From the IMG/VR virus record IMGVR_UViG_3300045988_127961: a stretch of 64,000 bases of DNA; one strand, written 5' to 3'. The stretch is from a virus. Below the pieces are notes generated by a model. It saw only the letters and a list, made by a program, of their open reading frames with translations. It searched no databases and was not told the DNA's origin. Each line of letters opens with the position of its first letter. Position 1 is the first letter of the stretch. The position numbers and the translations under genes were made by a program. Positions 11,712-60,921 of this stretch are shown here, piece after piece.

Positions 11712-14603
11712 ATGGTTAATAAATTATATCCACCTATTATATCTGGAACTTTACCAGCATTTGTTGGATAGGAAATTACTATTCCATTTCAAATGAATCG
11801 TGCAGTTAGTATGGTAGAAGTTTCAGGATTATGTTATATAATTAAAACAGTGTCAAGCAATGTCGTAATTGCTTAGGGAACAACCGCGGATTTTACTCCA
11901 AGCAAAGTCCGCGGTTGTTTGGAACAAGGTTCTATTACTTTTAATATAAATCTTAAATCAATTACTAATAATGGAAAACCTATTCAATATAAATTAAATC
12001 CAGGATAGTCTTACAAAATTCAGTTAGCATATATTAATACTAATGGAGTAGTTGGATATTATTCTACGGTTGGTATTGCTAAATGCACGACTAAGCCCGC
12101 AGTTTATATAAAAGGTTTTGAAGATAATTTAGTAGGAATAAATAAAACAAATTTTATTGGAGTATATAGCCAAAAAGAAAAAAATGATGATATTACTGAA
12201 AAAGTTTATTCATATAGATTTAAAGTGTATGATGAAAATGGTAATATTTTTGCTGATAGTGGAGAGCAATTACATAATTCAATTAATGACACGGAATTAA
12301 ATGAAAGTTATGATAGTTTTGAATTAAATAAAGAATTACAAAAAAATAAAAATTATTTTATTCAATATTCTATAACTACTATTAATAACTATGAAGCAGA
12401 GAGTGTTAGATACCAAATCATTAATAGAGAAACTATTAATCCAGAATTACAAGCAACCCTTTCCGCTACTATGGATGAAAATAATGGATATGTAAAAATT
12501 AATTTAAATGGAATCCGCGATAAAAAAACAGGGTTAGAAATTCCTGCTACTGGGGCTTTTGCTTTATTAAGAGCCAGTAGCGAAGATGATTTCAATACTT
12601 GGAATACAGTATTAAAATTTAAATTAGTTGGTGAAACTCCATCAAGAGAATTATATAGAGATTTTACTGTCGAGCATGGGTTTAGTTATCAATATGCGGT
12701 TCAGCAATATAGCGACGAAACTGCGGTCCGCAGCAATAAAATCTTTTCTAATACTGTATATAGTATTTTTGAAGATAGTTTTTTATATAATAATGGATAG
12801 TTATTAAAAATAAGATTTAATCCAAAAGTAAGCAATTTTAAAATTAATACCCTTGAAAGTAAAACTGATACTATTGGAAGCCAATATCCTTATATTTTTA
12901 GGAATGGAAATACTTATTATCACGAATTTCCTATAAGTGGTTTAATTTCTTACCTTATGGATGAAGACCATTTATTTATAGGTAAATTAGGCGATGATGA
13001 AATTAAAGATTTTACATCAACTGATTTAACTAACTATAATATTAATATAGAACGTCAATTTAAAACTAAGGCTTTAGAATTTTTAACTGATGGAGAACCT
13101 AAATTATTTAAATCTCCAACAGAAGGAAACTTTATTGTGCGTTTGTTAAATGTAAGTTTAAGCCCTGAAGATAAATTAGGACGTATGCTTCATACATTTA
13201 GTGGAACTGCATATGAGATTGATAAAGTTAGTTTTGATAATCTTACTACTTATGGATTTATTGACGCGGACCCGCCCGAGAGCGAAATTCTTAAATGGGA
13301 TAGTATTTCTTTTGATGGATGGTATAAAATTAATGGGTATATTAATGATGTAAATACCTATATTGATAATTTGAAAGATGAAAATCTGACTTAGGTAGAA
13401 ATTAATAAATTACAAGCAAATAAACAAACTTGTTTAGATAATTTATTACAAACATTAAGTTTTTATCCTATGTTTGAATTACTTTATGACGGAGATCATT
13501 ATAGTTTATAGACCAAAGATATTTTAGCTAATTCTCCTGCGATAACGATTCGATTTGAAGGTTTTGCTCCTGGAGATAAGTTCAGCATTGATGGAGAAGA
13601 AATTGTTATTGGTATTACAGGAGCTTATTTAATAGATCATGTTGCTCCAATCTATAGTGTTAAAGTAGTAGAATTATCTGACGTGGGCTTATAGCAAGGA
13701 ACTATTGTATATTCTTATTATGGCAAGCAGGCAAGTAAGTTTGATACTATTAATGATATTCAAGTTGCGGATTTACCTTTAGAGCAATATTATGGAACTG
13801 AAGGTAATATTTTAAATCTTTATAATGATGATTTTAAATACAAAGTAACATAGATTTATTTCTTGCGTTTTACTAAGCGTGATGTATAGAAATTATATAC
13901 AAGTAATAAAGTTAATTTTTATACTACTCCCGGCAGAGCAATTAGTGAAGAAGAAGGAGAAAAAGATCATTCTGTAGAAATTAAACGTGTAGATTTTGAT
14001 CCTACCTTAATTTATCATATCTATTTAGTAAGTCAAACTGAAGAACAAGATTATTATATTGATGGATATACTAAGAAAGAAATTTATGATTCTGGCGTAT
14101 TAGTTAGTGAAAAGAATTGGGCTTGTAATATTAGAATAAATGAAGATGATAAACAAATTATTGGTATTGATTAGAAGAATGAATATTAGATTAAAGACTT
14201 AACTGATATTACTTCTATTGAAATCGATCCAGGCGTTTTATGCGAATTATCAGTTCAACGTCAAGAAGTAGTTTACTCTTTTGAAAATGATAATCAAACT
14301 ACTTATAGAATTTTTAATGGTTAGAATTATACTACAACTACAATTTATCAATTAAAGCAAAATTGGTTAAGGGCTAAGAAGGCTTTAAAAGATTTTAAAG
14401 AATTAGAGCAAGATAAAAGCAATCCTGATTTTACTAAAGATGATCCATTTTATAATGTAAATTAGAGTAATATTTAGACTTGTATAAAAAATTATAATAA
14501 TAAAGTAGCAGAATTACAAAAGATAGTTGATGAAACATATACTTTATTTATTGATACTTTAAGAAAGGCGGTAGAGGATTATGAAGACTCAAAGACAATA
14601 TGA
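11712..14603 (+). CDS. Tail or baseplate structural protein (963 aa), TAG-recoded
   Basis: ATG at 11712 after GGAGGG. Frame-0 fragments 12225 and 12957 are joined by TAG. TGA stop at 14601 overlaps the next start. Confidence 0.55.
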
Positions 14604-16887
14604 TACCGACTTTCTTAAAAAATTAGACGAATTTAAACATAAAGTAGTTTATGCTCGTATTGAGCTATTAACATTTGATGAATTGCCAATAGAGAGTATA
14701 GAAGGCAAGATAACCAGCGGATCGATTAATATTGATGGAACATCTGCGGTCCGCAGGTCTTGTTCCCTTACTATGATGACTAATGAGAAATTATATAGAC
14801 AATATTCTTGGGGTTTAAATTCTAAATTTAGTTTAGCTATTGGATTAGAAAATAAGATTGATAGTAAATATCCAGATATTATTTGGTTTAATCAAGGTAT
14901 TTATTTAATTACTTCTTTTAATACTTCTCAAAGTGCTAGCTCATATAGCATTTCTATTCAAGGTAAAGACAAAATGTGTTTATTAAATGGAGATTTGGGA
15001 GGAGATTTACCTGCTTCTATAGATTTTGGATAGGAAGAAGTAATTACTTATACTTATAATAAACAAGATAATATAACCAAAGATAACTATATAAAAGGTA
15101 AATATTGCTATATTGTCAATAGTGAGGAAGAAGCTAAGAAACATAACGTTTATTATATTTCTACTTAGAATAAACAAACCACTTATTACGTTTTAGATGA
15201 AGAAGAATTTAGTAATAGAGAATACTATTTAAGAGAAAGTTATTTAAATTTAATTCAAATTCCTATTTAGACTATTATTAAAAAACTTCTTACAGTTTAT
15301 GGCAAAGAAAAAGAAAGTAATATAGTTATTAATGATTTAGATCAATATGGTTATGAATTATTGGCTAATAAATGTGATGAAACTATGTATTTTTTTAAAG
15401 ACGCGCAAACTAATAGAATAGTTAATGCTTCAATAGGGACATTGCCAGATTTATTAGATATAAATAATGTAAAAATAACTGATACAAGCAATATTAAATT
15501 TGATAATTTAGATAGTAATAAATTATTAGATGATGCCCCTAAACCAACTAAAGTAAGATTAGTAAATAATGGGACTATTTATACTATTGTAAGTCGAACA
15601 ACTAATGAAACAGTTGGTTATCGTATTTGTGATTTGGTTTACGCTGGAGATCTTATCACCAGTGTTGGTGAAAATGTGGCTAGCGTGTTAGACAAAATTA
15701 AAAATATGTTAAGTTGTTTTGAATATTATTATGATATAGATGGTAGATTTATTTTCCAAAGAAAGAAATTTTATGAATATTAGTCTTGGACTAGTATAGT
15801 GAATAATTCTAATGGAGATAGTTATATTGAGCCTGCAGTTTATTCTTCATCTTCAATTTATTCATTTAGAGACGGATAGACAATTATTTCTTTTAACAAC
15901 ACTCCACAGATTGCTAATTTAAGAAATGATTTTTCTATTTGGGGATAGAGAGAAAGTGCGAGTGGTACTGAGATTCCTATTCATCTAAGATACGCGATAG
16001 ACCAAAAGCCTATTTAGTATACTACGATTATTGTAAATGATAATGATATAAATAGATATAAATCTACAATGTATAATAATGATATTTTTGATACTATGAA
16101 TCCGCAATTAGAACAAAAAACTTATAAAAATAAGTGGTATCGAAGTGAAAATGAACCAGGAGTTATTTATTGCGATTGGCGCGAAGTTCTATATCGTATG
16201 GCTGTAGATTATTATCAATATAATTATGCAGATGATTTTACCAGTAAAGTGGCGACCGCGAATCCTGACCTCTATCCTTCTGGAATAACTGGTTATGAGA
16301 CTTATTATGTAGATTTATTCTCCTTTTGGAGAGATATTTATGATTATGATAAATTAGATTTCAAGGAAGAAGTAAAAAATAATCCTGAGAATTTAAATTT
16401 TTGGTTTGATTTTATTGGGGAAGAAAATGCGGACATTGCTAAATATTCAGTCCAATTAATTGGAGATAGAACAAAAGCAATTAATGATACTAATGTAAAA
16501 GTTATATGTTATAGAGATACACCTGATGTATTATTTATGACATAGACAGATTATGATTCTATTATTTAGAATAATTATCCAACAGAAAGTGGGTATATTT
16601 GGATTAATATTCCTTCTGGATATGATAATTATTTTAAAATTAGTTCTAAAGGTAAGAGTGCGGTTGATGAAATTGAAGATTTACTTTATACAACAGCCTA
16701 TTGTACGGAAAGCGTTTCAATTTCTACTATTCCAGTTTATTATTTAGAGCCTAATAATAGAATTTATATTGAAGATAAAAGAAGTGGCGTTGAAGGAGAA
16801 TATTTAGTTAATAAAATAACTATTCCATTAACTTATAATGGTTCAATGTCTATTAGTGCCACCAAAGCAATATCAAGAGTATATTAA
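14581..16887 (+). CDS. Tail-associated protein (768 aa). The N-terminal region resembles siphovirus tail-tip (Tal/gp27-like) proteins. TAG-recoded.
   Basis: Frame-1 fragments 14581, 15361 and 16069 are joined by TAG. N-terminus is MKTQRQYDTDFLKKLDEF...IELLTFDELPIESIEGKITSGSINIDGTSAVRRSCSLTM. TAA stop at 16885. Confidence 0.5.
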
Positions 16888-16900: not shown

Positions 16901-17245
16901 ATGGCAAGAAAGATAAGACAAATTCGTTATTATGGTGAAGGTCTTAATTCTAAGAACTATCCAAGTGATGTTAATATGAGTAAATTAATTACAGGAACCG
17001 CATTTAAAAATAATAACCAAAATGTATTAATTACTCAATTAGGTATTTAGACTTTGCCAGGAACGAAATTTTATTTAAATGATAGCGCTAATGCTATTAT
17101 TGTTGGAAATACTGGTATTTATGAATTAGATTTAGAAGGTATTTCTACTATTAATTTGATTAAATTTGATAGAAGCTCTATGAATTTGATTAATCAAAAT
17201 CAAGAAGCATATCTTATTATAGATTATTTATTTGAGGAGGGTTGA
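16901..17245 (+). CDS. Small tail-module protein (114 aa)
   Basis: RBS AAGGAGG. One in-frame TAG. TGA stop. Confidence 0.5.
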
Positions 17246-17247: not shown

Positions 17248-19560
17248 ATGGGTTTTTATGGTAATATAACTAATACTTCAAAAACAACCTTTACTTTTGA
17301 TAAAATTTACAGTAATAGACTTCAAATGGATAATAGCTGTACGAGTGATGGTATATTTTTAGGACGCTATGTTTTAGTTGAATATGGTCTTCCCGCCACT
17401 CAATATTTAGTAGGATATCTTGATAATAAAATTATGTATGATGATCCTTCTGATAGAAGTGATTCTCATATTATTTTATGTGAGAATGGAAAATTAGTAA
17501 AAGTTAAAAGAAGCAACCAATGGTATTTATATGTGGGAAATATAACCGCGAGTGGGGTTAAAGAGTGGAAATATCTCACTAGAATTACTAATGACAGAGT
17601 TGATGATGAATAGTATAATTTAAATTATCAAATAGATTATCCTGTTTATGGTCGTGGCTATGATTCTACAGTTTGGATAAAACAATACATCAATAATCAA
17701 GAGACTTATGTTTAGATTGCTGAATTAAATACTGTTGTTCCTAATTTTTCAATTTACCCACTACTTCCTCAAGATCCCTATGTCGCAGTTGATGATAGTA
17801 ATATCGTATATTAGCCAGGTAAGTATTATTATTATGATGAAACTGATAGTCATTATAAATTAGATAATAATGATACTAAAACCGAGGGGCGCGTTTACTA
17901 TTTAGAAAGTGAACTTGGACCTGCGATAACTACAGATCAAAGTAGCACAAATTTACTTTATAAATTAAGAGTTCCTACTAATTTCCAGCTTGATTTAGAC
18001 GATAATAATATTTATTATAATAAAGAAGGATTTAGTAAGACAAAACATTTTCGTGATGATAAAACAGAAAATACTATTAATTATAAATTAAGTTAGTCAG
18101 GATATAGATTTTACTATAATGTAGAATAGGATAATGTTGTTGGTGAGCCGATCGAAGATGGCTACGACCGCAAATCTCTCGTTGTAAAACTTCCTGCTCT
18201 TGGTAATGCGGTATGCGACACTTATGATTTGCTTTACGGTCAAAATCGCAATGATTCTGCTACCAATTTTGATAAAACTAACATTAAAGGTGCTTTAAAT
18301 ACTCTTAATAGAAAAATGAACTTAGATAAATTAGATACTAATAAACTTATTTATTTTTCTACTGAGACTGATAATAATATTAATGATAATTATATGAAGT
18401 CTGCGACTATCAAAGGAGATAATTTGATTTCAGTAGATGCTAATATTGAGAAGAATAACGGAGTTATTAAAATTACCCATAATAATTTAGATGTAAGTAA
18501 AGCATCAAAAAATTATGGTAAAGATGTTGATTTTAGTACTTTTGGCTCTTCTATTACTTTACCTAAATTATTTACAGATAGAGCTGGGCATATTGTAAAA
18601 GAAGAAACATTCTCAGTTAGTATTCCAAAAGGCTCTTATGAAAATACTAAAGAGGGTAATGTTCTTACTTCTTTAAGTTTTATTGATACTACCGGAGCTT
18701 TAAGTAGTGAAAAATCTTATTTAGGTACTTTAACGTTAGGAACTGGATATATTACCAATGATAAATTAAATACTATTACCAAAGATACAACTCTTAATGA
18801 TAGTATTAATAGATTGATTGATAATAGCGATAGCAAATATAATACTTTATTGGGTCAAACTAATAATAGTTTTGGTAAAGATACTGTTCCAACTCTTTAT
18901 GGCTTAAGACAAGGAATCAATAGTGATAGAGATAATATTAGTAATTTAAGCGATAAAATTGATATTTTAAATGGAGCCGTATCTACTACTAATTCTGTTG
19001 CTTATAGTATTAAGTAGGCTATTGATAAATTAGATAAAACTGATAACAAGGTAGATAAACAATTTGTTACGGCTGTAGAAGAAAAAGATGGTTTAATAAC
19101 TGTTTCAAGAAGTGCCTTACAAGAAAATGATTTACCTATTACTTTTGATGGAACTTATAGTAGTAGCAATAAAGTTGCTACTATGAGTAGTTTAAATACT
19201 TTAAAAGCAAATCTTTTAGGCGATTATACTGGCACATTAGCTGATGTAAATACTTTAGCAAGTAGTAAATTAAATGAAGACGCAGTGCGCGGTCTTACGT
19301 ATAATGCAACTTCTGGAACTAATGGAGCTAAAACCATAGCAGAAATGTTTGATTTAATTGTAGAATTATAGAATAAAAATACGTAGTTAAATACAACTAT
19401 TAAGGCATTATAGGATAAAGACGCGGAATCTGATACGACTATTAAAGTATTATAGGACAAAGATATTGAATTAAATAATTTAATTGCTGGATTAAGAACT
19501 GATGTTGATGCTTTAAAGAATAATTCGAATAATACTGATACTCCATCTGAAACAACTTAA
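17248..19560 (+). CDS. Tail fibre-like protein (770 aa), TAG-recoded
   Basis: RBS GAGGAGG. Frame-1 fragments 17242, 18229 and 19183 are joined by TAG. Asn/Thr-rich with a coiled-coil C-terminal part. TAA stop followed by a terminator. Confidence 0.55.
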
Positions 19561-19569
19561 TTTAAATAA

Positions 19570-19599
19570 GGGTTTGGTCTTAATAGGCCAAACCCTTTT
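19570..19599 (+). terminator. Rho-independent terminator
   Basis: GGGTTTGG...CCAAACCC stem followed by TTTT. Confidence 0.65.
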
Positions 19600-19647: not shown

Positions 19648-20229
19648 TTGCCTAATACATTAAATAAATATGTAAAATTTGTCAGAGGTTCTAAAACCGC
19701 TTTTGAAAATTTAGGGAATAGAAGAGACAATGATACTTTATATTTTATTTATGGGGAAAATGATTCTTCTGGAGAACTTTATTTAGGTAGTCGTCTAATT
19801 TGCGGTGGAATTAGTTCCGCGGGTAAGTTAAGCGATTTAAGTGATATTGTTCTCAATGAAGTTAAAACAAATCAAGTTTTAATTTATGATGAAGAACAAA
19901 AGAAATGGGTTAATTAGGGTTTAGAGAATAATGAGACTTTAATTAATTCTATTGTTGAAAAATTATCTACAGAAGAAAATTTAGCTAAATTAGCTCCTGT
20001 TTTTAAGGGCACAGTTCCAGGGTTAGTTCCAGTTTCTTTACATGAAACTAAAGGAAAGCATATTCTTACCGATGCAGGTACATGGATTGATATGCCAGTA
20101 GGAACATTAACTTAGGGAGATATTGAAACAATTAATATAGCTAATAAATATTTAGTAGATAAAGGTCCTGATAATTTGGTAACTCGTGTTGAAGCAGTCG
20201 AACAAACTGTTTCTTGGGCTGATATTTAA
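19648..20229 (+). CDS. Tail-fibre N-terminal-domain protein (193 aa, TTG start)
   Basis: RBS AAAGGAG. The N-terminus KFVRGSKTAFENLG...LYFIYGEND is shared with the next two genes. Two in-frame TAGs. Confidence 0.5.
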
Positions 20230-20243
20230 AGGAGTGAAAAAGA

Positions 20244-21890
20244 TTGAACGTTAAGTTTTTAAAAGGCTCTCAAGCTGAATTCGAAAAAGTGGCAGGTAGA
20301 TATAAACCTGGTGCATTTTATTTAGTAATTAATGATAATAAGTCCGCGGAGGACTATAAAAAACCAAGTCGTCTTTACTATGGTGTAGATGAAAATAATT
20401 GCGTTCCTGTAAATTAGGGTATTAATGTAGTTGATACTACAGCAGGTTTACCTCAAAGTTTTAACCAAAATACAGCAGGCGAATTTTATTATGTAAAAGA
20501 TAAAAATATTTTATGTATTAATAATGGTAAAGGCTGGATTCAAACAAATACTGATACTGTTTTGGATACTGATAAAAAGAATAGTAATGTGTCAGTAAAT
20601 ACTAGTCCCAATAATGCCAATGGAGCTTCTATAACTAATACTATTGCTGATAGTAGTGGTAACGTTATTACTGAGACTTATGATATTATTGGTAGTGATT
20701 ATATTCAAGTTGAAGTAATTCCTGCAACTAATGATAAAGGTGTAGACACTATTAAACTTAGTTTAACAGGAGTTAATTATCAATTAAGCTCTTCTTTAAG
20801 TAAAAAAACTTTAAATGTTAATTTAAAAAATGCTAATACTGATGCGGGTAATTTTAATATTATCGCCGGTAGCAATGTTAATATTGCCGAAAGCTCTGCG
20901 GGCAATTATACTTTAAGTGTCGATAAAGCAGTTAATGATATCAACGTAATTAATCATGCTACTGGTACTGGTTTTACTGCTTCTATTAGTGGTCCTGGTG
21001 TCGAAGGAGCTGGTAATAGTACAACTTTATCTGCTGATATTGATCCAGAAATTGCTTTAGAAGGCAAGGATGGTAGTTATAAATTTAAAGATGGTGTTTT
21101 AACTCTTCCTGTTTATAGCAAACAAGATATTGATAATCAACTTAGAACTATTAATGCTATGGTATTCCGTGGCGGATTCCAAATTAAAGATGGAGCCATT
21201 ATCTATGATAGTTCTGATATTACTGAAATTGCTGAAGGTAATACCTTTATTTATACTGGCGCTGAAGATACTCTTTGGAACGGCCATTATTTACGTCCTG
21301 GAGATTTAATTATTGCTTCTGGTGAAGAAGTTGATGGAGTTATTACTGGCACTATTAGTTGGACTTATGTTCCTTCTGCTGATGATCCTGTTACTGAGGT
21401 CGAAGGAGCTGATGATAACAGTAATGCTGGATTTATTATTAAGCTTGGTTCTACTAAAGAGCTTTTAAATTATATCCTTAAAGGTGAAAAAGGTATTGAG
21501 TTAGAAGTAAAGGCTCAAACTGGCTCAGTAGTGAAAGAAATTACTATTAAACATAGTAATACTTTAACTGTGAATACTCCAGTCTCTCAAGATTATGCTG
21601 ATGAGTAGACTATTGTTATTAATGAACCAACTGAAATTGATGATCAAGGTCATGTAATTAAATCTACTCGAAAAACATTTACTGTAAAGAATACTCACCA
21701 AGAAATTGCTAACGCAGATTATACAGTAAATGGTACTGATACTTTAATTCCTAATCTTAAAGTTGCTGGTGCTGATCTTGAAGGCAAACCGCTTGTTTTC
21801 ACTAGTAATAGCCTAAAGGTTAATGTTTCTGCGGCGACTGCGGCTAATGATGCGAAAGTTAGTTTTGAGTTAGAGTGGGGAACATTCTAA
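20244..21890 (+). CDS. Tail fibre protein (548 aa, TTG start)
   Basis: RBS AAAGGAG. N-terminus VKFLKGSQAEFEKVAG...GAFYLVIND. One TAG at 21606. TAA stop followed by a terminator. Confidence 0.55.
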
Positions 21891-21951
21891 GGGCAATATT
21901 ATTTAATAATAAATATAATTTTTTCTATTTTATATAGAAGAATGTTTTTAT

Positions 21952-21989
21952 GGGGAAAGATGAAATATTCTTTCCCCATATTTTTTTTA
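21952..21989 (+). terminator. Rho-independent terminator
   Basis: GGGGAAAGA...TCTTTCCCC stem followed by ATATTTTTTTT. Confidence 0.7.
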
Positions 21990-22008
21990 GGATAGAAAGG
22001 AGTAAATT

Positions 22009-25000
22009 ATGTCTAAGATACGTTTTCGTCCTGTATAGGGTCCAGAAGAAAAGATAAAAGCATATCCACAAACTGATGGATATTTTTATGTGGCAACAGA
22101 TACCGGACGAGTTTATTTAGATACAGCGACTGAGAATAAAATACCAATAGGTTCAAGTGGCGTTTAGGTAATTTATGGAACTGAAAAAGACGTCGGAATT
22201 GATTATGATGCGGATGAAAACCCAATCGGATATTCAATTCGTTTATCTAATTTATCAAGTTCTAATCCTCATGTAAATGATTTAATTTTAAATAGCGATG
22301 GAGCATTTTATCGTATTAAAGAATTTAAATTAAATGATGATAAAGAAGAAGTCGCAAGTTGTGAAAAATTAACTGTCGCCGGGGCGGGCGGTGGCGGAGA
22401 AGGAGACTCTGAACAAAAAGTTTTAGGAACTGTTTCTTTAACAAGAATTCCACCCGATAGTCCTGTTGATGTTTTGAATGAAGAAAATGTTAAAGTAAAG
22501 GTATTGGTTAAATGTAGAACTGTTGGAGGAGTTCCACAATCTTCTTCTGTGCAAGGAATTATAACTATAAGCGAAATTAAAAGTGCTACAGAAAAAGAAA
22601 TTTATTATACTTCTCCTCCTACTACTTATGAGCATAATATTCCGCAAGAAATTGATTTAACTAATATTTTAAGAAATTCATGTTCTAGTGAAATTAATTT
22701 TAGTATTTATTATAATCCTGATAAAGAAAATAATAGATTTTAGAAAAGCTCTGATACTATTAATATTAATAAACATCATCTTTCTTTTAGTTGGAAAGAA
22801 AGTAGTTTTAGTAATGATAGTCCAGTTGATAATGGACAAATATCTGTTAGTTGGTTAATGTCTGAAGATATTGCTAGATCTGTTGAAGTTTATTTTGATG
22901 ATTATTTAGTTTTAGATAGAACTTATAGTGATACTGATTCTTCTTCTGAAGATTCTTTTGTTATTACTCCTGATACAAATATATTAGGGACTGATAAAGT
23001 TTCTACTTTAAAAAATTATTTTACTCATGGTGAGCATATAATAAAGGCAAAGTTATATTTAATGAATAATTCTAAAAAAGGTACAGGAACAGATTTTATT
23101 TAGAAAGAAATCGTTATTCAAGAACCAGGCAATAAAATGCCTTTAATTTGGGTACAAGATTTTAAAACAGAATATTATACTTATGAGACAATAAGAATTC
23201 CTTTTAAAGTATTAGATCCAAATAATAATGGAGCTTTTATAACTCTTTATAAAAATGGTGTTCAAGTAGGAACTAGAGAATTAGATAGTTCGCAAGTTAG
23301 AGAATGGCAATATTGGGAAATTACTAATTTAACTGTAGATGATAGTTCTTATTATACTATTAAAGTTGGTACTGATCCTTATTCTTATTCTCGTAATTTT
23401 AATTTTACAATTTTAATTGACCCTTTAAGAGATATGAAGTTAGTAAAAAAAGATAATTTAAAGGTTAATTTTATAGCTACTGGTCGTTCTAATTCAGAAG
23501 GAAAATTAGGTCGTGAAACTTATTTAATTAATAATAATAAATATGTAGAATTTAAAAATTTTAACTGGTATAATAATGGTTGGGTTTTTGATGAAAATAA
23601 TACGACTTGTTTACGAGTAAGCAATGGTGCTGAAGTATCTATCCCAGTCGGAAAAATGGCTTTTAAAGATGGATCATCATCTGCTACTATTGAGATTCAA
23701 TTTAAAATAAAGAATCCTCAAAATTATGCTAAAGTTATAACTAAATATACTAGATATAAAGTAAGTAAAGATAATTGGGAAGATAATGATGCTTGGGATA
23801 AATTTAAAGCCCAAAATAAATATCTTAATTATGATGAGTTTTTAACTAAAGAATATTTACCGACAACTAATTATACTTATGATGATTTAGAATATAATAA
23901 AATAGAACAAGATTTTAATTTAAAGAATTTAGTTTGTGCATATGGTAAATTAGGGAATTCTGTTTCTCCTGGTATTTATTTTAGTCCATAGGATGCTGTA
24001 TTTACAGCTAACGGGGCTCAAGAAACAGTTTCAGTTGATTTTATTGAAAATGAAATGCTAAATCTTTCATTTGTTTATACTAAAAAGAAAAGTGATATAG
24101 AAGGCGGAAATTCTAAATTATTAGAAATTTTTATGAATGGCGTTTTAACTAGTGTTGTACGTTGTAGTAGTGATGTTTGGAATATTGATTCTGATTTCAT
24201 TAAATTTATGTCTAATACTTGTGATATTGATATTTATAGTATTAGAGTTTATGATACAGATTTAACTATTCCTGAAATAGTCCAAAATTACGCTTTTGAT
24301 AAGAGAAGTATAAAACAGTGGGACCAAAAAGATCTTTATGAAAACAATACGGTATTAAAAGATGATGTATTTTCTTATACTAAAATGAAAAAGTATAATG
24401 ATAATCATCCGACTGAACCTTTAATGCCCTATATTATTCTAAGGACTACTAAAAATAATAAAAATAATACGGATAATAGATTACCTTATTCTAAAGCAAA
24501 AGGAAGCTAGGAAGGAACTTTAGAATTTGTTAACACTGCTTTAGACGCTGCTTACAATAGTGGTGAATTAGAAAAAGTTGCTATAAAAGAAGGATGGAAA
24601 CCTGTAATCGAAAAAAATGAAGAAACATAGGAAGAAGTAGTAAAATATACTGCGGTATAGAATTATTATATGCATCATTGTCCTAGTTTTATAACTGTTC
24701 TTAATGGATGTACTTTCCAAGTTCAAGGTACTTCTTCACAATTTTATCCTCGTCGTAATTATAAAGCTAAATGCAAAGAATCAATGCTTTTAAATAGAGG
24801 CCCATTTGCTGAAGACTATAAAAAAGCAGGAGACTAGTATAATGAAGATATAACTAAACATCCTTGTTATTTAGAGTGGTTTTATATGGATAATAAGACA
24901 GTCGGTACTACTAAATTTACTTTAAAAATAGATTTTATGGAATCTTCTGGAGATTATAATAGAGGATTTGCTAATTTAGTTAACGAGATTTATTCTAAAC

Positions 25001-28000
25001 ATCCAATAGAAGACTATAAAGATTCTTTTGATAATTATAATTTATATGGAAATTTAGAAGATTATCGCACTTCGGTAAAAGGATTCCCCGTTTTAGCTTT
25101 CCATTATATGTCCAACGATGATAATACTTACTCTAAGGAAAATAGTAATAACTGTATTTTTATTGGCAAATATAATATGTTATTAGATAAAGGCTCAGAT
25201 GAATGTTTTGGATTTAAGCCAAATAAAAAGATTTTACAAAATCAAATTACGGGCAACCCTAAAGTAAGAGATATGGCAGAATGTTGGGAATTTTAGAACA
25301 ATTCAAGAACTTTTTGCTCTTTCCGCGACCCTTGGAATCGTTATAAATTATCATTTAGAAATCCTAATATGGTAATCCCTCCAGATGGAGATAATCCTGA
25401 ATTAGTTAAAGGCGCTCCAAAAGTCGTTGATTCTTTTGAACCAAGATATAATCCAAATGATGATTTAATTGCTGATAATTTATTTAGTTTAAAAGAGTGG
25501 CTTGATCCAGATGGGACATAGACTAAGATTGTTGGGGAAGAATTAAAAAATGTAGCCCCAGATAGACTTACTAAAAAAGAAATAGTTGATGAAATTACTG
25601 GTATAAAATCTATTAAATGGATTATAAAGAACCCAGACGGAGAAGAAATAGAATTTAATGTTGCTAATGATACAAGTAAACAAGAATTACTCTTAGCTTT
25701 AATGTCTAACTGGGAAGACGCAGTTAGTTGGGTGTGGAGTACTTGTTTAGATTGCGATATTGAATTTGATGATGGATAGAAATTAAAAATTCCATCTATG
25801 GGCATTTATACTAAAGTTGATGGATTAGCTGAAGCTATATATGTTCCTAATGTCTATTATGTTGAAGATGGAGTTAATGAAAATGGAAAAATTATTTATA
25901 AATTAGCTTCTGAAGAATATAACTCTGAAACAAGATATTATAAGTAGATTAATGAAAATAATAGTTTAAAGTATGTAAGCATAAAACTTACAAATAATTC
26001 AGATAAAGTATATAAAGCAAATATTTATTATCTTTTAACTGATAGTAAAAATGAAATTTATGTATTAAGTTCTGATAAATTTAATTCTTCTTTAGATTAT
26101 TATTCTTTTAATAAAAATGAAGAAGGTATTGAGGAAAGATGGAAATTACCTAATCCAGTAACCTATGGCTCTATTACTTATACTAAAGATAGTAAAGAAT
26201 ACCGTCAAGCTAAATTTAAAAATGAATTAAGTAATTTCTTTGATATTGAATATTTAGCTTCTTACCTTTTAATGACAGAAATTTTTGAATGTTATGATTC
26301 TCGTGGAAAAAATGCAATGTTTGCTTCTTGGGGACCTCAAAAAGGTAATATTCAAAAATCTACTGGCAAACAACATTATATTTGGTATCCTATCTTTTAT
26401 GATATTGATACTCAATTAGGTATTAATAATACTGGTATCCCATCTTTTGAATACTACATTGATGCTACTGAAGAAGGAAGTTTTTCAACTAATGATAGTG
26501 TTCTTTGGAATAATTTTTACACTTTCTTTAGAAGTAAGATGGTGGATAAATATAAGCAATTAATGGGAACTCAAAATAATTCTTATAGTCCAAATGATTC
26601 AAGAGTAAATAAAATTTTTACCAAAGGAGCAGGAAGCGGGGCTAAAAAAAGTGATATTGTAGATAAATGGTATCGTACTGATCCATCGGTATTTCTTGAT
26701 AGCTATGCCGTTCTAGGAGACAGACCAATTGTTGCCTTAAGTTTAGACGAAGAATTTAAGTATATTATTCCAACAAACTCTAAAGCCAAAGATATGCCAG
26801 TGTTTGGTCGTTTGACTGATGGAGGTTCATATGAGGTTGAAGATGATAAATATTTTTATGCTTTGCAAGGAGATAGAAATCTTTATCGCGCGCAATTTTT
26901 AGCAAATCGTCTTAATTACATCGACTCTTGGTTGACCGTTGGCACTTATGCTAGAAATGGTGGAGGAAGCTATATTAGAAGTCGTATTTCTGCAAACAAT
27001 CCTAAGAATACGTCAGATAAATGGATTGAAGGCACTAATACTCAAAATATGGAAGGATTAATTACAAATTCTCAGTATTGGAAAAATGATGTTGAATTCG
27101 AAGAGAAAAATCATATGTTCGATGGTGAGTATTGGATTAACATGGAGCCCGCGCGTAATGCTTATGTTACTATTGGCACAGATGGAGAGAATTTTCCTTC
27201 AAAGAAATATAATGGTTTAGAACCAGTTAAATATGTAGCTCCTGATATTAAAAAAGGAATTATAAGTAGCGGTAATTATAAAGAACAATTATATTATATT
27301 TATGGAATGGATCAAATGAAATCTCTCGGTGATTTAAGTAAATTATATTTCCAAGAGTTCGCGGCTGAAGGAAAAATGGAGCGTTTAACTGATTTATTAT
27401 TAGGATATGATGGAAAAGATGAAAGTGGTAATGAATATTTTAATAATGATGTAAATGACTGGTCCTTCTCAAAAGGCGGAATGCCTTTACTTAAAGAAAT
27501 GAATCTTTGTAATATTAACTTTAAAAAAGACTAGGGGGCATTAGATTTAACTAAAAGTGAAAAACTTGAAAACTTTAGAAATACTAAATCTAATATCCCG
27601 AGAGTTAATTTTGCTCCTGGAGTAGCTTTAAATACTTTATATTTAACCAATCGAACAAATTATTTAAGTTTAATAGAAGCTAATTTATTAACGAAATTAA
27701 TAACTAACTATATATATCCTGAAAAAAATCCAATTACTGGAAAACTTGAGGTCTCAGATGAAAATCGTGGTTTATATATTCAAGGTCTTACTGATGCTGA
27801 AGAAGGAAAAGAAAAAACCGAGATAAGAACTTTTGATATTCGAGGCGGTAATTTAGGTTATAATAGTTATGAATTGTTACGCAAATATATTTCAGCTAGT
27901 AAAAATAGTAAATTAGATTTATCTAATTGTATTATTAATTTAAATAATGTTTAGTGGAGTCCATATAGACTTCTGACTGACACTAAAACAACTCTTGATC

Positions 28001-29754
28001 CAGAAAGAAAATCTTATTATAGAGATAATGGACATTTTTAGTTGGTAGCTATTCCAAAAGATTAGGTTAATAAAATAACAAAATCTGATATTAAAAATAA
28101 TTAGATTTATTATTTAGATACAATAAATGGAGACAATAATAATCATAGTATAATAACTGATTATAATTTATTAATTGATATTTATAATAATTATAGGGGT
28201 CTTAATACTAATAAGCCAGAAATATCTGGTGTTATGTATATAAAAAATAATAATTAGATTGATGAATCTATTATCTAGAATGAGTTATAGGATAAATACC
28301 CTGATTTAATAATTTTTGTAGAAAATGTTAAACAAGAATGTTCTGCCAAGTTTATTTTAGAAAAAGAAGATATTGATGGAGTATTAATTTAGGAGGTTCT
28401 AAAAACTTAGAAATTACCCTTATCTAGCAGTAAATTCTTTGATGATCCAACAAATTCTTCTAGCGAAACTTATATTTCTTTTGGTAGCTTACAAGAAAAA
28501 ATGCCAACTTATGATTTTAAAGGTTGGGAAGATGATACGGGAGAATTAGTAATTGCTGTTGGAAAAAATGTAAATGAAGAAGACGTTGTTTTAAAAAGCG
28601 ATTGGAATTCTTTGTCTTTACAATCTAATAAAATGGATTATATTTTTAAAGCGAGATTTGAGCGCAAATCTTATACGATCACTTTCGTTAATGGTGACCG
28701 CGTTATTAATGATTCAACTGTAAAGAAAGTATTTAATTATGGTGAAAGAATTACTGTTCCAGAAGAATTTTATTATTTTAATAATACAGAAGTATCTGAT
28801 TTACCAGAAGGCGAAGACTCATTAGAATGGACTTGGAGATAGACGGGATGGGCGGATAAAGATGGAGTTAAAATTGATTTAACTAAACAATTAGCCTATG
28901 CTGACCGCGAATTCTACGCTGTTGGAGAGCCGATTAGTGTTTATGATAATATTTTAACTAATGATTCTACTCATAAATATTATGATATTATAAATTCTGA
29001 TGGAGAGTTATCATTTGTAATGACTGACTTAGCTAAGAATTTAAAAGGTAAAGTTACTTTACCTACAACTTATAACGGTTAGCCGATTACAAGAATTAAA
29101 TATAGCCAAGTTAATCCATCAGCAGCAGTTGGTATTCAAGTAAATCCTAATATCACTGCGATATTTTTTGCTCCAAAAGATAGCAATAAAATTTCTGTAA
29201 TAGATGATTATGCTTTTATTTTAGATAGTGGGTTAGAATATTTCCAATTTAGTGATTGTTTAAAGAAAATTGGTACTAAAGCATTTTATCAATGTCCTTT
29301 AAGTCGTAATAACATAATTCCTTATTCTTCTTCTACTGAAGGTTTGACTTTTGGAGCTCAAGCATTTTATCAAAGTAAGATGGGTTCTTATTCTCCTTAT
29401 AATTTAATTATAGAGGGATGCAAAGACGGTATTCTTAATTTTGATATAAATGCATTTTCTGGTCAGACAATTTTAAATATGTCTGGTAATTAGTTTAAAG
29501 GTTATACTGGCGCTATTCAAGTATAGATTGGTACTAATAAACACCCAATTAAACAAATTACAGCAGATAGCTCTGGCAATATTTTTACTCCTCGTCAAAC
29601 TGGTATGCCTACAGTGGCTAATGGATACACAGGTCGTTTTAGATATTATTATGTTGCTAGTTATGGTGAAAGTATTAAAAATACTTTACACAATATTTAT
29701 GAAGCAATGATATCTAATAGAGCGAATTTTGAAGAAGAGCCTATTGTAAAGTGA
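22009..29754 (+). CDS. Giant tail fibre or host-recognition protein (2581 aa) with C-terminal BspA-type leucine-rich repeats. TAG-recoded.
   Basis: ATG after AAAGGAG. Frame-1 fragments 22474, 22858, 23137, 24055, 24886, 26272 and 28501 are all joined only by TAG. N-terminus RFRPVQGPEEKIKAYPQTDGYFYVATDTG is of the fibre N-terminal type. The C-terminal region (about 28950-29500) has repeats such as ISVIDDYAF...FSDCLKKIGTKAFYQCPL...LTFGAQAFYQS typical of BspA LRRs. TGA stop at 29752. Confidence 0.55.
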
Positions 29755-29763
29755 GGATAAATT

Positions 29764-29964
29764 ATGGAAAAAGAAATTGTTTATAGATATATGGGTTCTA
29801 ACGGTATTATTGAATCTTCTATATAGTTGACAGGAATTCCTGCGACTACTTTGTATAGATTAATAGCAGATTACAATAAGAAATTAACGAGAGATGGAAA
29901 AGAATTCTTTTCCATCTCTCCTTTAGTTCCCGAAGATGAATTAGAAGAATGGTATGAGGTCTAA
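29764..29964 (+). CDS. Small hypothetical protein (66 aa)
   Basis: RBS GAGGA. One TAG. Followed by a strong terminator. Confidence 0.3.
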
Positions 29965-29998
29965 ATAGGCCAGAATACATTGATTTAAATATAAAAAA

Positions 29999-30043
29999 AA
30001 TTAGGTTAAATAGGAAAAGAAACTATTTAACCTAATTTTTTTA
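29999..30043 (+). terminator. Rho-independent terminator with a 15-bp perfect stem
   Basis: AATTAGGTTAAATAG / CTATTTAACCTAATT followed by TTTTTTT. Confidence 0.75.
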
Positions 30044-30060
30044 GAAAGGAAGAGATAGAT

Positions 30061-31743
30061 TTGATAGTTAAAAATGATAGTGTTATCGAACAAGCTAAAT
30101 GGGAAGAGCTTCAAAAGAAAATCAATACTTTAGCTAAAGATAACTCAATAAAAAACGTTAATGGAAAAATCGTTGAAATAAAATCTATTGAAGACTATTA
30201 TAGTAATATCACTGGTATCGTTCAAATGAAGAAATTAGATCCATCTGTTCTTCGTATACCTTTAGATGAACCTATTATAAATATAAACGCTGATACTCGT
30301 CAAATTGAATTAACTAAAGAATTTGGAAAAACACAATTACTTACTGTTGAAAATGATCATTTGGCAGAAACAATTTATTTTCAAATTGATAGATATTTTG
30401 ATTTACAAGATTTAGCGGCTGATGATATTAAAATTTATATTCAGTATTATTTAAACGATCAAGTTCAAGGTTATTCTGAAGCTATTTGTCCTGATATCGG
30501 GACTGCTGGAAAACTGATTTTTGGATGGCAAATTAGTGATGAAGTGACTAGTGAATCTGGTACTTTATAGTTTTCTATTATTTTCTTTAAAAAGAATCCA
30601 AAAGATAATAATAATTTAATGTATGTATTTAATACATTACCAGCGCAAATGGTTATTAATAAAACTTTAGATATTGACGAAGATTTAATTACCGCTTAGC
30701 CTGTTGATTATTTAACTGGTTATCTAGAAAGCCTAATTGATTCAAAGAAATCTGCTGGTTTTGGTGTTCCTGATAATGTTGCTTTCTTGACAAGTATTTT
30801 AAATAATAAATCTGTTTATTTAACAGGTGATAAATTATATGCTTTAGCCTATAATGATACTTTAAATAATCCAGATAATACTACAATTGAATATAAATGG
30901 ATTTGTAATTATAGAGGAACTAATACTGAATTAAAAAGTGGTATTGGTTATGAATATAAAAAAATTATTGAAGATAATAGTATTTTTAGTGGAGATATGG
31001 TTTATAATGAAAAATTAACTTATTTCACTAAAAATGGAGATTCTTATATTAATAGCAGTAGTGATATTAATCTTGAAAACTACACTGCTAAGAAAAATGA
31101 TCTCTATTTAAAAGTTCAATATTGTGAAGTTGATGGATGCGGAAGCTATAGTGTCACCGCGTTTGGCGCTACTGCTAATCAAGTAAGCAAAGAAGTTAAA
31201 TGGACTGGATTGGCTATTTCTGTTGAAGGAATTAGTGAAAATTTTAGAATTGTTCTTGATCCTTCTCCTGATAATGGATGCTATTATGGTTCTTCTAACA
31301 CTATTACTGCTGTTGGATAGAATGATGAAGGTGTTTAGTGTACTTATCTTTGGAAAAAGAATGGCTCTGATTTTAGTACTGAAAAAACTGTAACCTTAAC
31401 TAAAGAAGATAATTATACTTTGTCAGTTCATGGCTATAAAAATAAAGATAGTATAGATTATCCTACAATTAGTTTCACTAATTATTTTGATCCAACTAAT
31501 TTAGTTCCTGTCATTGATAAAAAAGTTAAAATTGAGAATGGAAAATATATTGTTACAGTTACTAACACTAGTGAATTAGGCAATGGTATTTATGAATATC
31601 AATGGAAAAATGCGTAGGGTGCTACTTTAAAGACAACTTCTGATAATTCAACAGAAGTAGATGAAAATATTACTCAAGGAGCTGTAATTATCCAGAAGGG
31701 TGAAAGAAAATCGCAACCAGGAACCTTTAAGATTGAGGGGTAA
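30061..31743 (+). CDS. Structural protein (560 aa, TTG start). Paralog of the next gene.
   Basis: Frame-1 fragments 30061, 30787 and 31420 are joined by TAG. Shares the motifs ETIYFQIDRYFDLQDL and NTLPAQ with 31749..32369. Confidence 0.5.
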
Positions 31744-31748
31744 GATAA

Positions 31749-32369
31749 ATGATAACTAATCCAACTGATTATTATAGTGTTTTACATCAAATACAAGATG
31801 AAAATTTTCCAGTTAAATATCCTGCTCTTCCAGCCCCAGAAGATGAGAAGTTGGTTTAGATAGATTTAAACTCAAGAATTATTAGTAATGAAAATAGTTA
31901 TATTACAGTTGAAGGTGATCATGCTGCTGAAATTATTTATTTTGAAATAAATAGATATTTTGATACTATGGATTTAACCAATATGATGTGTATTATTTAG
32001 TATATTAATGCTGATAATGAAAAACGCATTTATCCAGTCCCATATTATGATACTTTAACTCATAAAGATAAAATTATTTTTCCTTGGGTTTTAAATTATA
32101 GTGCTACTAAAAAATCTGGCACTTTAAATTATATGATAACTTTTTATAAAATAGAAAAAGATTCTAATAATTTATTATATAATTTAAACACATTACCAGC
32201 AAGTCTTTAGGTTTATTCTAAACTTAATTTAGATTCTATTGTAAAAGAAGAAGATTATTATATAATTGATGATAGCCAAGTAGTACAACAAATTTGGGAG
32301 CGTTTAGCACGTTTAGAAGGATTTGTTGGTGGTAATGGGTTGGATGTTTATTGGATTGTTCTCGAATAA
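31749..32369 (+). CDS. Hypothetical protein (206 aa). Short paralog of the 30061 gene.
   Basis: The segments EIIYFEINRYFDTMDL and LNTLPASLQ match the N-terminal half of the preceding gene. Three in-frame TAGs. Confidence 0.45.
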
Positions 32370-32377
32370 ATAAACCA

Positions 32378-32413
32378 AATGGTATAGAATTATTAATTTA
32401 ATTCTATACCATT
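32378..32413 (+). terminator. Hairpin (14-bp stem), possible weak terminator
   Basis: AATGGTATAGAATT / AATTCTATACCATT. Only a short T/A-rich tail follows. Confidence 0.35.
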
Positions 32414-32442
32414 AATTTATAGAAAGGAGTTATTGAAGATCG

Positions 32443-33471
32443 ATGGCTCTATTTAAAATTTTAAAAGGTGATTCAGATAGATTAGTCACCTATGATGCGA
32501 AAACGGTTAATGGGAAAATACCTTTTCCCGCCTTAGATTCTGGAAAAACTTTATTCACCCCAGTAGAAGATGCTACTCCTATTAAAGAAGGATACGCTTA
32601 TTTTACAGAAGATACTCATAAATTTTATATTGATACTGTAGATAAAAGATTAAATTTATATACCGATCATGCAGATTATGCTACTTATGATGAAAATGGT
32701 CGTAATTTAGCCGAATTGTCAGAAGTATCTTATGAAAATATTGATGATAATGGAAGTAAAATTGGTACGATAAATATTAATGGAATTGAGTATAATGTTA
32801 CTTGTCCTGCGGATGTAGCAAGTAAACCTGTAAATAAATATGTGTTTACCGCGAAAGCAAATTAGAATACATTTACTATTCCTTTTGATTTTGATGATAG
32901 TAGTGCTTTAACTTTATATTATAATGGTATCATGCTAAAAGAAAATGATCATTACACTGTTAAGGGAAAGGTTATTACTTTAAATGGGTGGACTAGTGAA
33001 GCTGATGATTATCTTACTGTAATGGGTATTGAGGGTGCGGCTGCGATTAATGTTGATGAAAAAGTGGCTTAGATTCAAGAAGCAGTAGATAACGCCGAAG
33101 TGACTATTAATAATAAAGTTGCTGATGCTATTAAATCTATTGATAATAAATTGGCGACTGTACCTGATGATGTTACACAAGCAGTTTATAAAAATAAATC
33201 CAATATAATGACTGCTGATGGTAGAATTACGATGGATAGTAGTTATGTTCCTACGGCTGATATGGAATTAGCTACTAAAAAATATGTTGATAATGCTACT
33301 CCTCCTACAGTTGGAACTACTACTGATTATTCTATTTATATTGGATCTACACAACCTGCTTCTGGGACCGCTCCTTTAGTATGGATAGATACAACAGTTA
33401 AAACTGGCACTTTTAAATATAGAACTTCTACCACAGGTACTTGGACCCCTGTTCCCGTGGCTTGGATTTAA
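32443..33471 (+). CDS. Tail fibre protein (342 aa)
   Basis: RBS AAAGGAG. N-terminus MALFKILKGDSDRL...GYAYFTEDTHKFYIDT. Two TAGs. TAA stop. Confidence 0.55.
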
Positions 33472-33505: not shown

Positions 33506-33916
33506 ATGGATCAAAATTTGATTAATCAATTATTCCAAGTATGTTTGATTCCTATGCTTGGCGCTTTAACTACTTTTATAGTTATTTGGATTAAAGCAAA
33601 AAGTGCGGAATTACAAAAGAAAACTAATAATGATATTTTAAATAAATATGTGCAAATGGCTACTGACACAATTACTAACTGTGTTATTGCCACTAATCAA
33701 ACTTATGTAAATTCTCTTAAAGAACAAGGTAAGTTTGATGAAGCTGCTCAAAAAGAAGCATTTTAGAGAACTTATCAAGCAGTATTGCTCATTTTAAGTG
33801 ATGACGCTAAAGAGTATTTGAATAATGCTTTTGGTGATTTAAATAAATATTTACAAGAGAAGATTGAGTCTACAGTAAATAATTATCGTACTCCAAGTAA
33901 TGATTTAAAGCAATAA
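33506..33916 (+). CDS. Holin, LL-H-like (136 aa). Single N-terminal transmembrane segment. One in-frame TAG.
   Basis: RBS AAAGGAG. TM helix LFQVCLIPMLGALTTFIVIWIKA followed by a charged or amphipathic tail. Located at the end of the structural module. Confidence 0.5.
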
Positions 33917-40578: not shown

Positions 40579-41031
40579 CTAATTGCGAGAACCGCGCAAA
40601 GGTAAAGTAATATCTCTTTCCTTTTGGATATATGGTCCATCAATTAGATAATCAGCAGTTTTTAGTATATTCTTAATTCTAATATTATTACTATTCTTTA
40701 AATCATCATAAACATATCCAGTCCATATATATATTTTAATGTTTGGATATATTTTTTTAATTTCAGTAATAACTAAATTAGTTAAAAATTCGTTTTCAGG
40801 GCAGAGAGGTTCTCCACCCATAATACAAAGATTACGCGCAACATTATTCGCATTAATAGCAGTAATTAATTCATCTAATACTTTATTAGTAAATTCTTTG
40901 CCACCATTAAAATCCCACGTTTCAGGATTCTGACATCCTTCACAATGGTGCGGGCACCCTTGTGTAAAAAATGATACACATACTCCGGGTGCCGCCGCCA
41001 AATCATTCTTTATAATTCCTGCATATTTCAT
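40579..41031 (-). CDS. nrdG: Anaerobic ribonucleotide reductase activating protein (radical SAM)
   Basis: CPHHCEGC cluster. ATGA overlap with the nrdD stop. Confidence 0.75.
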   Translation of the reverse strand: MKYAGIIKNDLAAAPGVCVSFFTQGCPHHCEGCQNPETWDFNGGKEFTNKVLDELITAINANNVARNLCIMGGEPLCPENEFLTNLVITEIKKIYPNIKIYIWTGYVYDDLKNSNNIRIKNILKTADYLIDGPYIQKERDITLPLRGSRN

Positions 41032-43364: not shown

Positions 43365-43365
43365 A

Positions 43366-43406
43366 CTAAATATAGTAGTTCTTTTAGAATATTCTACTAT
43401 ATTTAG
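43366..43406 (-). terminator. Hairpin with a 13-bp perfect stem downstream of the kinase gene
   Basis: CTAAATATAGTAG / CTACTATATTTAG. Confidence 0.45.
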
Positions 43407-43423
43407 GTTTTGTTAGTAAATAA

Positions 43424-52418: not shown

Positions 52419-52582
52419 AAATGATTTCCTCCTAATAGGTTTTTTAAGTCTATTAGTCGTAGTGTCAATTATTAAAAATAATAAGCAGCCCTATCTACAA
52501 TTTCGTAATCTTCTATAATAATCTAAGGACTAATGTTATTATTCCATATATTTCGTTCGCATTTACCAACGATATTAATTGT

Positions 52583-60854: not shown

Positions 60855-60892
60855 TTTAAAAAGTTTATAACCTTTCTTTATCTTATATAAAT

Positions 60893-60921
60893 ATTATATA
60901 ATATTTATTTAGAAAAATCAA
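60893..60921 (-). promoter_or_regulatory. Sigma70-type promoter, TTGATT-N17-TATAAT
   Basis: Minus-strand -35 (plus 60916-60921), -10 (plus 60893-60898) and a 17-nt spacer upstream of the HTH gene. Confidence 0.5.

Follow-up and report, generated by a model that had tools for sequence, protein, structure and literature searches.

Does a very large reading frame in a viral genome belong to a modular host-range locus, and what might such a protein do on a phage tail? The question is raised by positions 19648-33471 of IMG/VR virus record IMGVR_UViG_3300045988_127961, a stretch of 64,000 nucleotides that was analyzed as a whole (the window). The original prediction, made from the letters of the DNA alone, described an expanded set of tail-fibre genes sharing one N-terminal anchor, among them a 2,581-residue giant ending in BspA-like leucine-rich repeats (LRRs), with two tandem paralogs between the fibres. 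Its six gene coordinates all proved correct on open reading frame (ORF) analysis, and its overall picture of a modular host-range locus with a very large ORF holds; the grouping by a common anchor and the LRR assignment survive in part. We consider it probable, taking all the evidence jointly, that the region is the distal host-recognition (tail-tip) part of the tail-gene block. The locus is predicted to encode at least six surface or fibre-like proteins, namely g17248, A, B, C, P (with its short paralog Q) and D. Sequence comparison identifies the largest, C, as a distant relative of the "tail fibre" of Hankyphage, with a CotH-kinase-like core. The genes are as follows.

17248-19560, plus strand: g17248, fibre-like, 770 aa; coiled-coil C terminus, different N terminus, varies among relatives
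19648-20229, plus strand: gene A, short fibre-like, 193 aa; type-1 N terminus (VKFVRG...TLYFIY)
20244-21890, plus strand: gene B, fibre-like, 548 aa; type-1 N terminus
22009-29754, plus strand: gene C, giant multidomain tail-associated protein, 2581 aa; 27 in-frame TAG (Gln) codons
29764-29964, plus strand: 66-codon ORF, helix-turn-helix (HTH)-like; kept in 17/17 relatives
30061-31743, plus strand: gene P, 560 aa; residues 64-206 form a domain in common with Q, C-terminal part immunoglobulin (Ig)/PKD-like
31749-32369, plus strand: gene Q, 206 aa, short paralog of P; residues 27-162 shared with P, highly conserved
32443-33471, plus strand: gene D, fibre-like, 342 aa; C-type motif at residues 43-72

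Each gene start in the locus is preceded by an AAAGGAG-type Shine-Dalgarno (SD) site. The order along the DNA is tape measure, tail proteins, the locus and a holin gene, which places the locus at the distal end of the tail module, directly before the holin.

Gene C and the reading of TAG

The original prediction treated 22009-29754 as a single 7.7-kb ORF under a code in which TAG is sense, and named division into several genes as the finding that would overturn it. The frame does contain 27 TAG codons and neither TAA nor TGA. Callers that apply the standard code split it (JGI fragments of 244-532 aa, "hypothetical protein"), and the window holds no suppressor tRNA, as would suit several genes, or a decayed pseudogene, whose TAGs are real stops. 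We nevertheless regard that reading as refuted and assign it next to no probability. No in-frame start with an SD-like site occurs anywhere inside 22009-29754. Across 17 related IMG/VR loci (18 genomes with the window), the frame is open in every one, with 2,564-2,651 codons, 23-40 TAGs and no TAA or TGA; amino-acid identity to C among these alleles ranges from 64 to 98%, and five of them stand at just 64-71%. The overall ratio of nonsynonymous to synonymous substitution rates (dN/dS) is 0.09-0.29, with dN below dS in every 300-codon window. In addition, 80 homologs of 2,100-3,000 aa are full-length and collinear, and their contigs reach 210 kb. At the 83 alignment columns of gene C that contain a TAG, glutamine makes up 512 of the 971 residues in the other sequences (53%), against a background of 2%. 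Because there is no internal start with an SD site, the frame stays open in 17 relatives, TAG stands opposite glutamine and purifying selection extends throughout, we conclude that 22009-29754 is one gene.

The late genes of this phage read TAG as glutamine. Two features by which code 15 is recognized are present: TAG aligns with glutamine in homologs, and in-frame TAGs lie within uninterrupted conserved frames. When TAG is taken as sense, ORFs of 100 codons or more add up to 69 kb instead of 41 kb, and the gain sits mainly in the plus-strand block (1 to ~37.8 kb); in the minus-strand block (38-64 kb) in-frame TAGs are few. Scans for tRNAs and with Rfam gave no match in the 64-kb window, only about a third of a genome of ~190 kb, and a suppressor tRNA(CTA) was thus not found there; some TAG-recoded phages have none (PMC10607447).

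Domains and relatives of protein C

From its N terminus, C is predicted to comprise a beta module of ~125 residues, a poly-Gly hinge, Ig-like domains, a LamG-like lectin region, a CotH-type fold, a further conserved region and BspA-type LRRs. The main parts have these positions.

22009-22383, plus strand: residues 1-125, all-beta N-terminal module, proposed to attach the protein to the virion
22411-22788, plus strand: residues ~135-260, Ig-like (PKD/CARDB-type) beta-sandwich
23836-24408, plus strand: residues ~610-800, Laminin_G_3/concanavalin-like lectin region, by transitive homology to P0080 and P0076 with no direct Pfam match
24706-26958, plus strand: residues ~900-1650, domain of the CotH atypical-kinase fold, interrupted by a variable insert (~1110-1390)
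29185-29370, plus strand: residues 2393-2454, BspA-type (LRR_5-like) LRRs, below the Pfam threshold

The N-terminal module carries the motif F-x-P-V-x-G ... G-x-x-Y-F-A-T-D-T-G-x-I-Y-L-D ... D-D-L-I-L-N-S-D-G-x-F-Y-R-V and is followed by a disordered poly-Gly hinge (residues 124-133). Among PHROGs, C matches phrog_14959, a profile of 2,494 positions without known function (E=8e-52), and also phrog_24896. Distant homologs gave clearer Pfam assignments: CotH in P0076 (43.8 bits, above the cut-off), Laminin_G_3 in P0080 (34.9 bits) and LRR_5 in P0065 (213 bits). By blastp, the domains of P0076 and P0080 fall on C at residues 610-800 (LamG-like) and 900-1650 (CotH-like). Conservation relative to distant homologs is highest at residues 1-50, 900-1100 and 1400-1500 (52-62% identity) and lowest over the last ~400 residues.

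The predicted BspA-like ending finds its support in orthologs, the repeats of C itself lying below the Pfam threshold. Most homologs at 30-82% identity, and the orthologs at 52-82%, carry precomputed PF13306 annotations, and hhalign matches the C-terminal repeats to the LRR_5 region of P0065 with 69% probability (E=4.6e-5). As in BspA-type surface proteins (PF13306), whose threshold the orthologs pass, the repeats follow I-x-x-x-A-F-x-x-C-x-x-L. Unlike those proteins, C has only a few, degenerate, sub-threshold repeats that make up a minor part of its length. A Foldseek search against BFVD returned proteins of uncultured gut "Siphoviridae sp." with the automatic labels "Spore coat protein", "Spore coat protein H kinase fold" and "Leucine-rich repeat protein".

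The CotH-type core has an atypical-kinase fold, and fold search clearly matches it to CotH bound to Mg/AMP. CotH requires D228 and D251, and its Y142 and W245 stack on either side of the adenine (bioRxiv 10.1101/469122). Three motifs recur in the C family: QGTSS in 81/81 members (residue 906 of C), D-x-R-x-K-N in 72/81 (DSRGKN, residue 1430) and W-x-P-x-F-Y-D-x-D in 70/81 (WYPIFYDID, residue 1459). In the last of these, a Trp lies six residues ahead of an Asp, the spacing of W245 and D251. From such spacing, not from residue-level superposition, we infer that these residues may be the equivalents of the CotH catalytic residues. Unlike the Bacillus spore-coat kinase (PDB 5JDA; PF08757), to which sequence identity is 11%, the domain of C falls below the Pfam cut-off, contains a sizeable insert and forms part of a 2,581-aa protein of phage structural type.

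Searched against GenBank phages by tblastn, C matched "hypothetical" regions of Hankyphage-type Bacteroides phages, Bacillus phage G gp353 and phage NatCom_3357. The match in Hankyphage p00 lies in a 6,738-nt (2,245-aa) ORF directly after the genes for tape measure, baseplate hub and minor tail protein; its 3' end holds the variable repeat (VR) of a diversity-generating retroelement (DGR), followed by the template repeat (TR) and a reverse transcriptase. The product was first reported as lacking similarity to any characterized protein and as ending in a C-type lectin (PMC6199706). It is now regarded as a tail fibre that sets host range, and mass spectrometry of particle preparations detected it with 5 peptides in 3 of 4 gel fractions (PMC12135933, S6 Table). 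DGR variable proteins of Bacteroides "domain group 3" exceed 2,000 aa and combine CotH-kinase and carbohydrate-binding motifs with LRRs (bioRxiv 10.1101/2024.11.15.621889).

Blastp aligns C with the Hankyphage protein in two collinear segments, residues 356-1069 with 552-1105 (E=9e-14) and 1392-1888 with 1185-1572 (E=2e-16). Both proteins are longer than 2,000 aa, follow the tape-measure and tail-tip genes and share a homologous core of ~1,200 residues that includes the CotH-kinase-like region. Identity, however, is only ~22%, and neither the N termini (helical in Hankyphage, the 125-aa beta module in C) nor the C termini are related. C also lacks the C-type lectin end and is TAG-recoded, unlike its counterpart. 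The homolog in NatCom_3357 (1,673 aa) is the last large gene of a tail module (TMP, Dit and others) ahead of holin and endolysin, and again the core is shared among C and the Hankyphage and NatCom proteins and both termini differ. This comparison supports a modular reading of C, in which the attachment end would follow the phage lineage and the ligand end would differ, being a DGR-diversified lectin in Hankyphage and LRRs here. The host type of the window phage is probably different from that of Hankyphage, since the window phage uses strong SD sites.

A DGR, considered for the window in light of the Hankyphage homology, was rejected. C takes part in no direct repeat of the required length and identity, such as a VR/TR pair with adenine-specific mismatches; within the locus, just the segment shared by P and Q is repeated, and the large ORFs of the window include no reverse transcriptase gene. 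Variation arises here by allele exchange rather than by mutagenic retrohoming.

N-terminal modules, allele exchange and genomic setting

The single N-terminal anchor proposed for A, B, C and D resolved into two pairs, {A,B} and {C,D}, with a weak link between them. In shuffle-controlled Smith-Waterman comparisons of the first 80 residues, A-B (z=10.3) and C-D (z=6.1) stood out and B-C was marginal (z=2.4); the other cross-pairs, and pairs with six unrelated N termini from the window, scored ~0. The A-B similarity recurs in blastp (33% identity over 45 aa, E=1e-5) and hhalign (90% probability, E=1e-6). For D, hhalign against the C family gave 96% probability (E=1e-9), and blastp aligns residues 3-39 of C with 35-65 of D. 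The motif had been placed at the start of D; it instead occupies residues 43-72, after an insertion of ~35 residues. A HMMER profile of the 124-position C-type module scores 147 bits on C and 19.4 bits on D (per-sequence P ~6e-8). When the A/B profile was deepened with distant homologs of B, hhalign aligned 44 columns of it with the C-family N terminus (70% probability, E=4e-5), in the register that the original prediction had proposed. As far as sequence can tell, there are two types of N terminus, and a remote relationship between them is plausible.

The idea that these segments are typical of phage fibre attachment domains could not be established; Pfam searches with the isolated 70-90-aa N termini of A, B, C, D and four homologs matched no family. 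An expected likeness to Mtd_N or to hyaluronidase-type fibre N termini was not confirmed, and a match to "Hyaluronidase" in BFVD (E=2.7e-4) is a lead only. A regular expression built from the described pattern matched 5 of the 43 long ORFs (A, B, C, D and g16901), against a mean of 0.08 for shuffled N termini; having been fitted to A-D, it is informative only for the clustering and for the extra match. That match, g16901 (16901-17245, plus strand; 114 aa), fits the pattern with RKIRQIRYYGEG...PGTKFYL, is 97-99% conserved and may carry the motif as a fifth protein or serve as a docking partner; no significant alignment with A-D was obtained.

A profile of the full C-type module matched 819 clusters (50% identity), 448 of them at E<=1e-10, among 1.84 billion representatives. 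The short matches are mostly truncated giants, 65 of 89 aligning collinearly from residue 1 of a giant, so the full module is essentially a signature of the giant family; this exhaustive profile search gave no evidence that the module is reused on small proteins, or otherwise occurs on proteins of many sizes. In the best-matching protein, P0167 (2,123 aa), 13 separate stretches match profile positions 22-53, which shows that some proteins also carry the G-x-x-Y-F-A-T-D-T-G-x-I-Y-L-D unit in tandem copies.

Gene order is the same in 17/17 relatives, and g14581, g16901, A, Q and the holin are 93-100% identical among them (A, 93-97%). Divergence is concentrated in particular parts of the other genes. 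B is 95-96% identical over residues 1-80 and averages 71% at 401-440, with at least five allele classes; P is 98-100% identical over residues 1-280 and 63-80% in its C-terminal part; D falls from 97% at residues 61-90 to 63% at 211-240 and occurs in length classes of about 323-324, 341-342 and 375-376 aa. C has three allele classes, and in five genomes it is 64-71% identical to the allele of the window, flanked by genes at 94-100%. These divergent alleles retain 96-100% identity over the first ~100 residues and 86-97% over the last ~400; the centre ranges from 43 to 90% per 100-column window, mostly 45-80%. Their dS is 0.8-1.1, with dN/dS of 0.26-0.29. Because dN and dS are both high, we regard these alleles as old and brought in by recombination rather than as products of rapid local diversification. 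Across the 18 genomes, g17248, B, C, P and D vary in allele class independently of one another, which demonstrates the cassette exchange that the original prediction had suggested looking for in related phages. The locus thereby resembles the modular receptor-binding or tail-fibre loci of long-tailed phages in its position between tail-tip and lysis genes, in the conserved N termini and variable C termini of B, P and D, and in mosaic recombination among strains. It differs from them in that its N-modules match no described adaptor family and that in C the centre, not the tip, is exchanged.

P and Q are indeed tandem paralogs, residues 64-206 of P aligning with 27-162 of Q (37% identity over 144 aa, E=1e-16). 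Only these two copies of the domain occur in the window, and in its few database homologs (443-806 aa) the domain lies near the N terminus, followed by C-terminal parts of varying length. Homolog searches with B and P returned only narrow families without annotation, and several of the database homologs of B are truncated at TAGs. P resembles a further surface-exposed binder, and Q resembles a structural paralog that has been truncated.

Hairpins divide the region into units that end with g17248 or comprise A and B, C and the 66-codon ORF, P and Q, and D and the holin.

19568-19597, plus strand: hairpin with a T-rich tail, between g17248 and the A-B unit
21949-21980, plus strand: hairpin with a T8 run after it, between B and C
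32378-32413, unstranded: hairpin between Q and D

A further "terminator" hairpin at 29889-29920 was rejected, as it falls within the conserved 66-codon ORF; an AT-rich hairpin with a T-run at ~30003-30040 is a likelier terminator ahead of P. The 66-codon ORF, which the original prediction had missed, starts 9 nt past the stop of C. Its product, LTGIPATTLYRLI, weakly resembles HTH_17 (E=0.036), and its one in-frame TAG corresponds to a glutamine codon in L003.

The phage itself is uncultured, low-GC (window ~30%) and long-tailed. Members of the database clusters lie on contigs that pile up at 188-197 kb, and its genome is likely to be ~190-197 kb. No nucleotide match to GenBank phages was found by megablast for 14-38 kb. 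The plus-strand block is the late structural module, which includes the following genes.

3-8078, plus strand: tape-measure ORF, >2,691 codons, open at the window start; phrog_4211, E=8e-62
14581-16887, plus strand: tail protein; phrog_1887
33506-33916, plus strand: holin at the end of the tail module; phrog_13712, E=7e-38

With >2,691 codons and 78 in-frame TAGs (2.9% of its codons), the tape-measure ORF points to a very long tail and to strong reliance on suppression of TAG. The minus-strand block is a replication module that encodes anaerobic NrdD, Pol III alpha, DnaB, a RecJ-like protein, a superfamily 1 (SF1) helicase, AAA_24 and GIY-YIG proteins. Within it, 41028-47978 (minus strand) holds NrdD together with the DnaE-type Pol III alpha replicase, the type of replicase on which the phylogeny of the TAG-recoded phAss-1 group is based (PMC10607447). 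A distant relationship is suggested by a Foldseek match to Siphoviridae sp. ctxMM9, which belongs to that group. A gene at 51579-52535 (minus strand) encodes a protein with a hydrophobic segment at its N terminus and a "Phage tail lysozyme" domain (PF18013, E=3e-19), and lies inside the replication block at a distance from the tail and lysis genes. Two intergenic sites in the same block (58280-58328 and 60873-60921) carry a repeated AT-rich promoter-like element, TTATATAAATATTATA[C/T]AATATTT, with 80% identity over 49 nt, which may be an early or middle promoter motif. Like the code-15 gut phages (crAss-like, Lak, Jade, Sapphire, Agate and phAss-1 group; PMC10607447, PMC9523058), this phage has late structural genes enriched in in-frame TAGs and early and replication genes almost free of them, and it shares Pol III alpha and NrdD with the phAss-1 group; unlike them, it shows no nucleotide similarity to any GenBank phage and no suppressor tRNA in the 64 kb of the window.

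Host recognition, adhesion or catalysis

We propose that the N-module of C docks the protein to the tail tip or baseplate and that the poly-Gly hinge gives it reach. The lectin, Ig and LRR parts would then bind ligands on the host surface, and the CotH domain would bind or modify a surface component. D may dock at the same site as C, and A and B at a second, possibly related, site. Strain specificity would be varied by homologous recombination, not by a DGR, with old, diverged alleles of the centre of C and of distal B, P and D exchanged through the conserved gene ends and flanks.

Several observations weigh against this account. The virion location of the locus proteins, their docking through the N terminus, ligand binding and enzymatic activity are all things that we infer. 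The N-terminal modules match no known attachment domain, and the tie between the A/B and C/D types is weak, the HMMER profile of the C-type module scoring A and B at ~0 bits. The part of C that bears the LRRs is conserved (86-97%) and the centre varies, which fits poorly with LRRs as the specificity determinant; LRR_5 (PF13306) itself scores 19.9 bits on the whole protein and 24.2 bits (E=3e-5) on the isolated segment, against a cut-off of 27.7. CotH (PF08757) likewise reaches only 17.9 bits (E=0.002) on residues 1396-1509, profile positions 154-255, against a cut-off of 23.8. Searches of PDB sequences missed CotH when run with a family profile of the core and gave nothing meaningful by phmmer with C; CotH was recovered by fold search only, using an AlphaFold model of low confidence (pLDDT, predicted local distance difference test, 55) built on P0001, a 98%-identical proxy. 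Finally, we know of no role for a kinase fold on a phage tail.

Two other accounts of C deserve consideration, each of which we judge unlikely. C could be a virion adhesin for substrates other than the host, such as mucus glycans or other cells, leaving A, B, D and P to bind the host receptor. Its wealth of Ig-like, lectin-like and BspA-type LRR modules would suit such a role, mucus adherence was proposed for the Hankyphage homolog by Benler et al. (PMC6199706), and it is B, P and D, not C, that show the classical receptor-binding pattern of conserved N terminus and variable C terminus. Yet C has the strongest allelic divergence of the locus, at 64-71% identity between flanks of 94-100%, and its Hankyphage homolog is a DGR target that is now treated as a host-range tail fibre (PMC12135933). 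C might instead be primarily an enzyme, acting on the virion or during assembly as a kinase of host envelope components or phage structural proteins, with its binding modules serving only to target it. CotH phosphorylates spore-coat proteins. No part of the family is better conserved than the CotH domain (52-62% identity among distant homologs over residues 1400-1500), its catalytic-type residues are near invariant, and the fold match is to CotH with Mg/AMP bound. The supply of ATP to a tail-tip enzyme outside the cell is doubtful, however, the strict motifs are absent from some distant members, and the conservation could come from a structural or ligand-binding role of a pseudokinase. We continue to favor a distal host-recognition locus.

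More broadly, we can only speculate, at long odds, that in a widespread family of phage tail proteins, 2,000-3,000 aa long, the tail tip bears a CotH-type kinase that is catalytically competent. If so, adsorption or tail assembly would involve phosphorylating a component of the host surface or of the phage, or modifying it in a nucleotide-dependent way. Such an enzymatic activity is not known so far from phage tails, and the family would diversify by DGRs in Hankyphage or by swapping of the whole central region here. The near-invariant kinase-type residues in any case raise the question of what job the CotH fold does on a phage tail.

Standard-code public calls split the C and B genes into "hypothetical protein" fragments of 100-550 aa, to which most of the short N-module matches belong, and the giant family is therefore largely invisible in databases and counts of small orphans are inflated. 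A natural data set for mapping host-range determinants is provided by the 18 near-isogenic genomes, in which alleles of five genes assort independently. The locus ties the DGR-target "tail fibre" of Hankyphage to a much larger family of giant CotH-fold tail proteins, which occurs in large TAG-recoded gut phages, apparently of a different host type. Within this family, the core appears to be conserved, and the virion-attachment and ligand-binding ends to be swapped between lineages.

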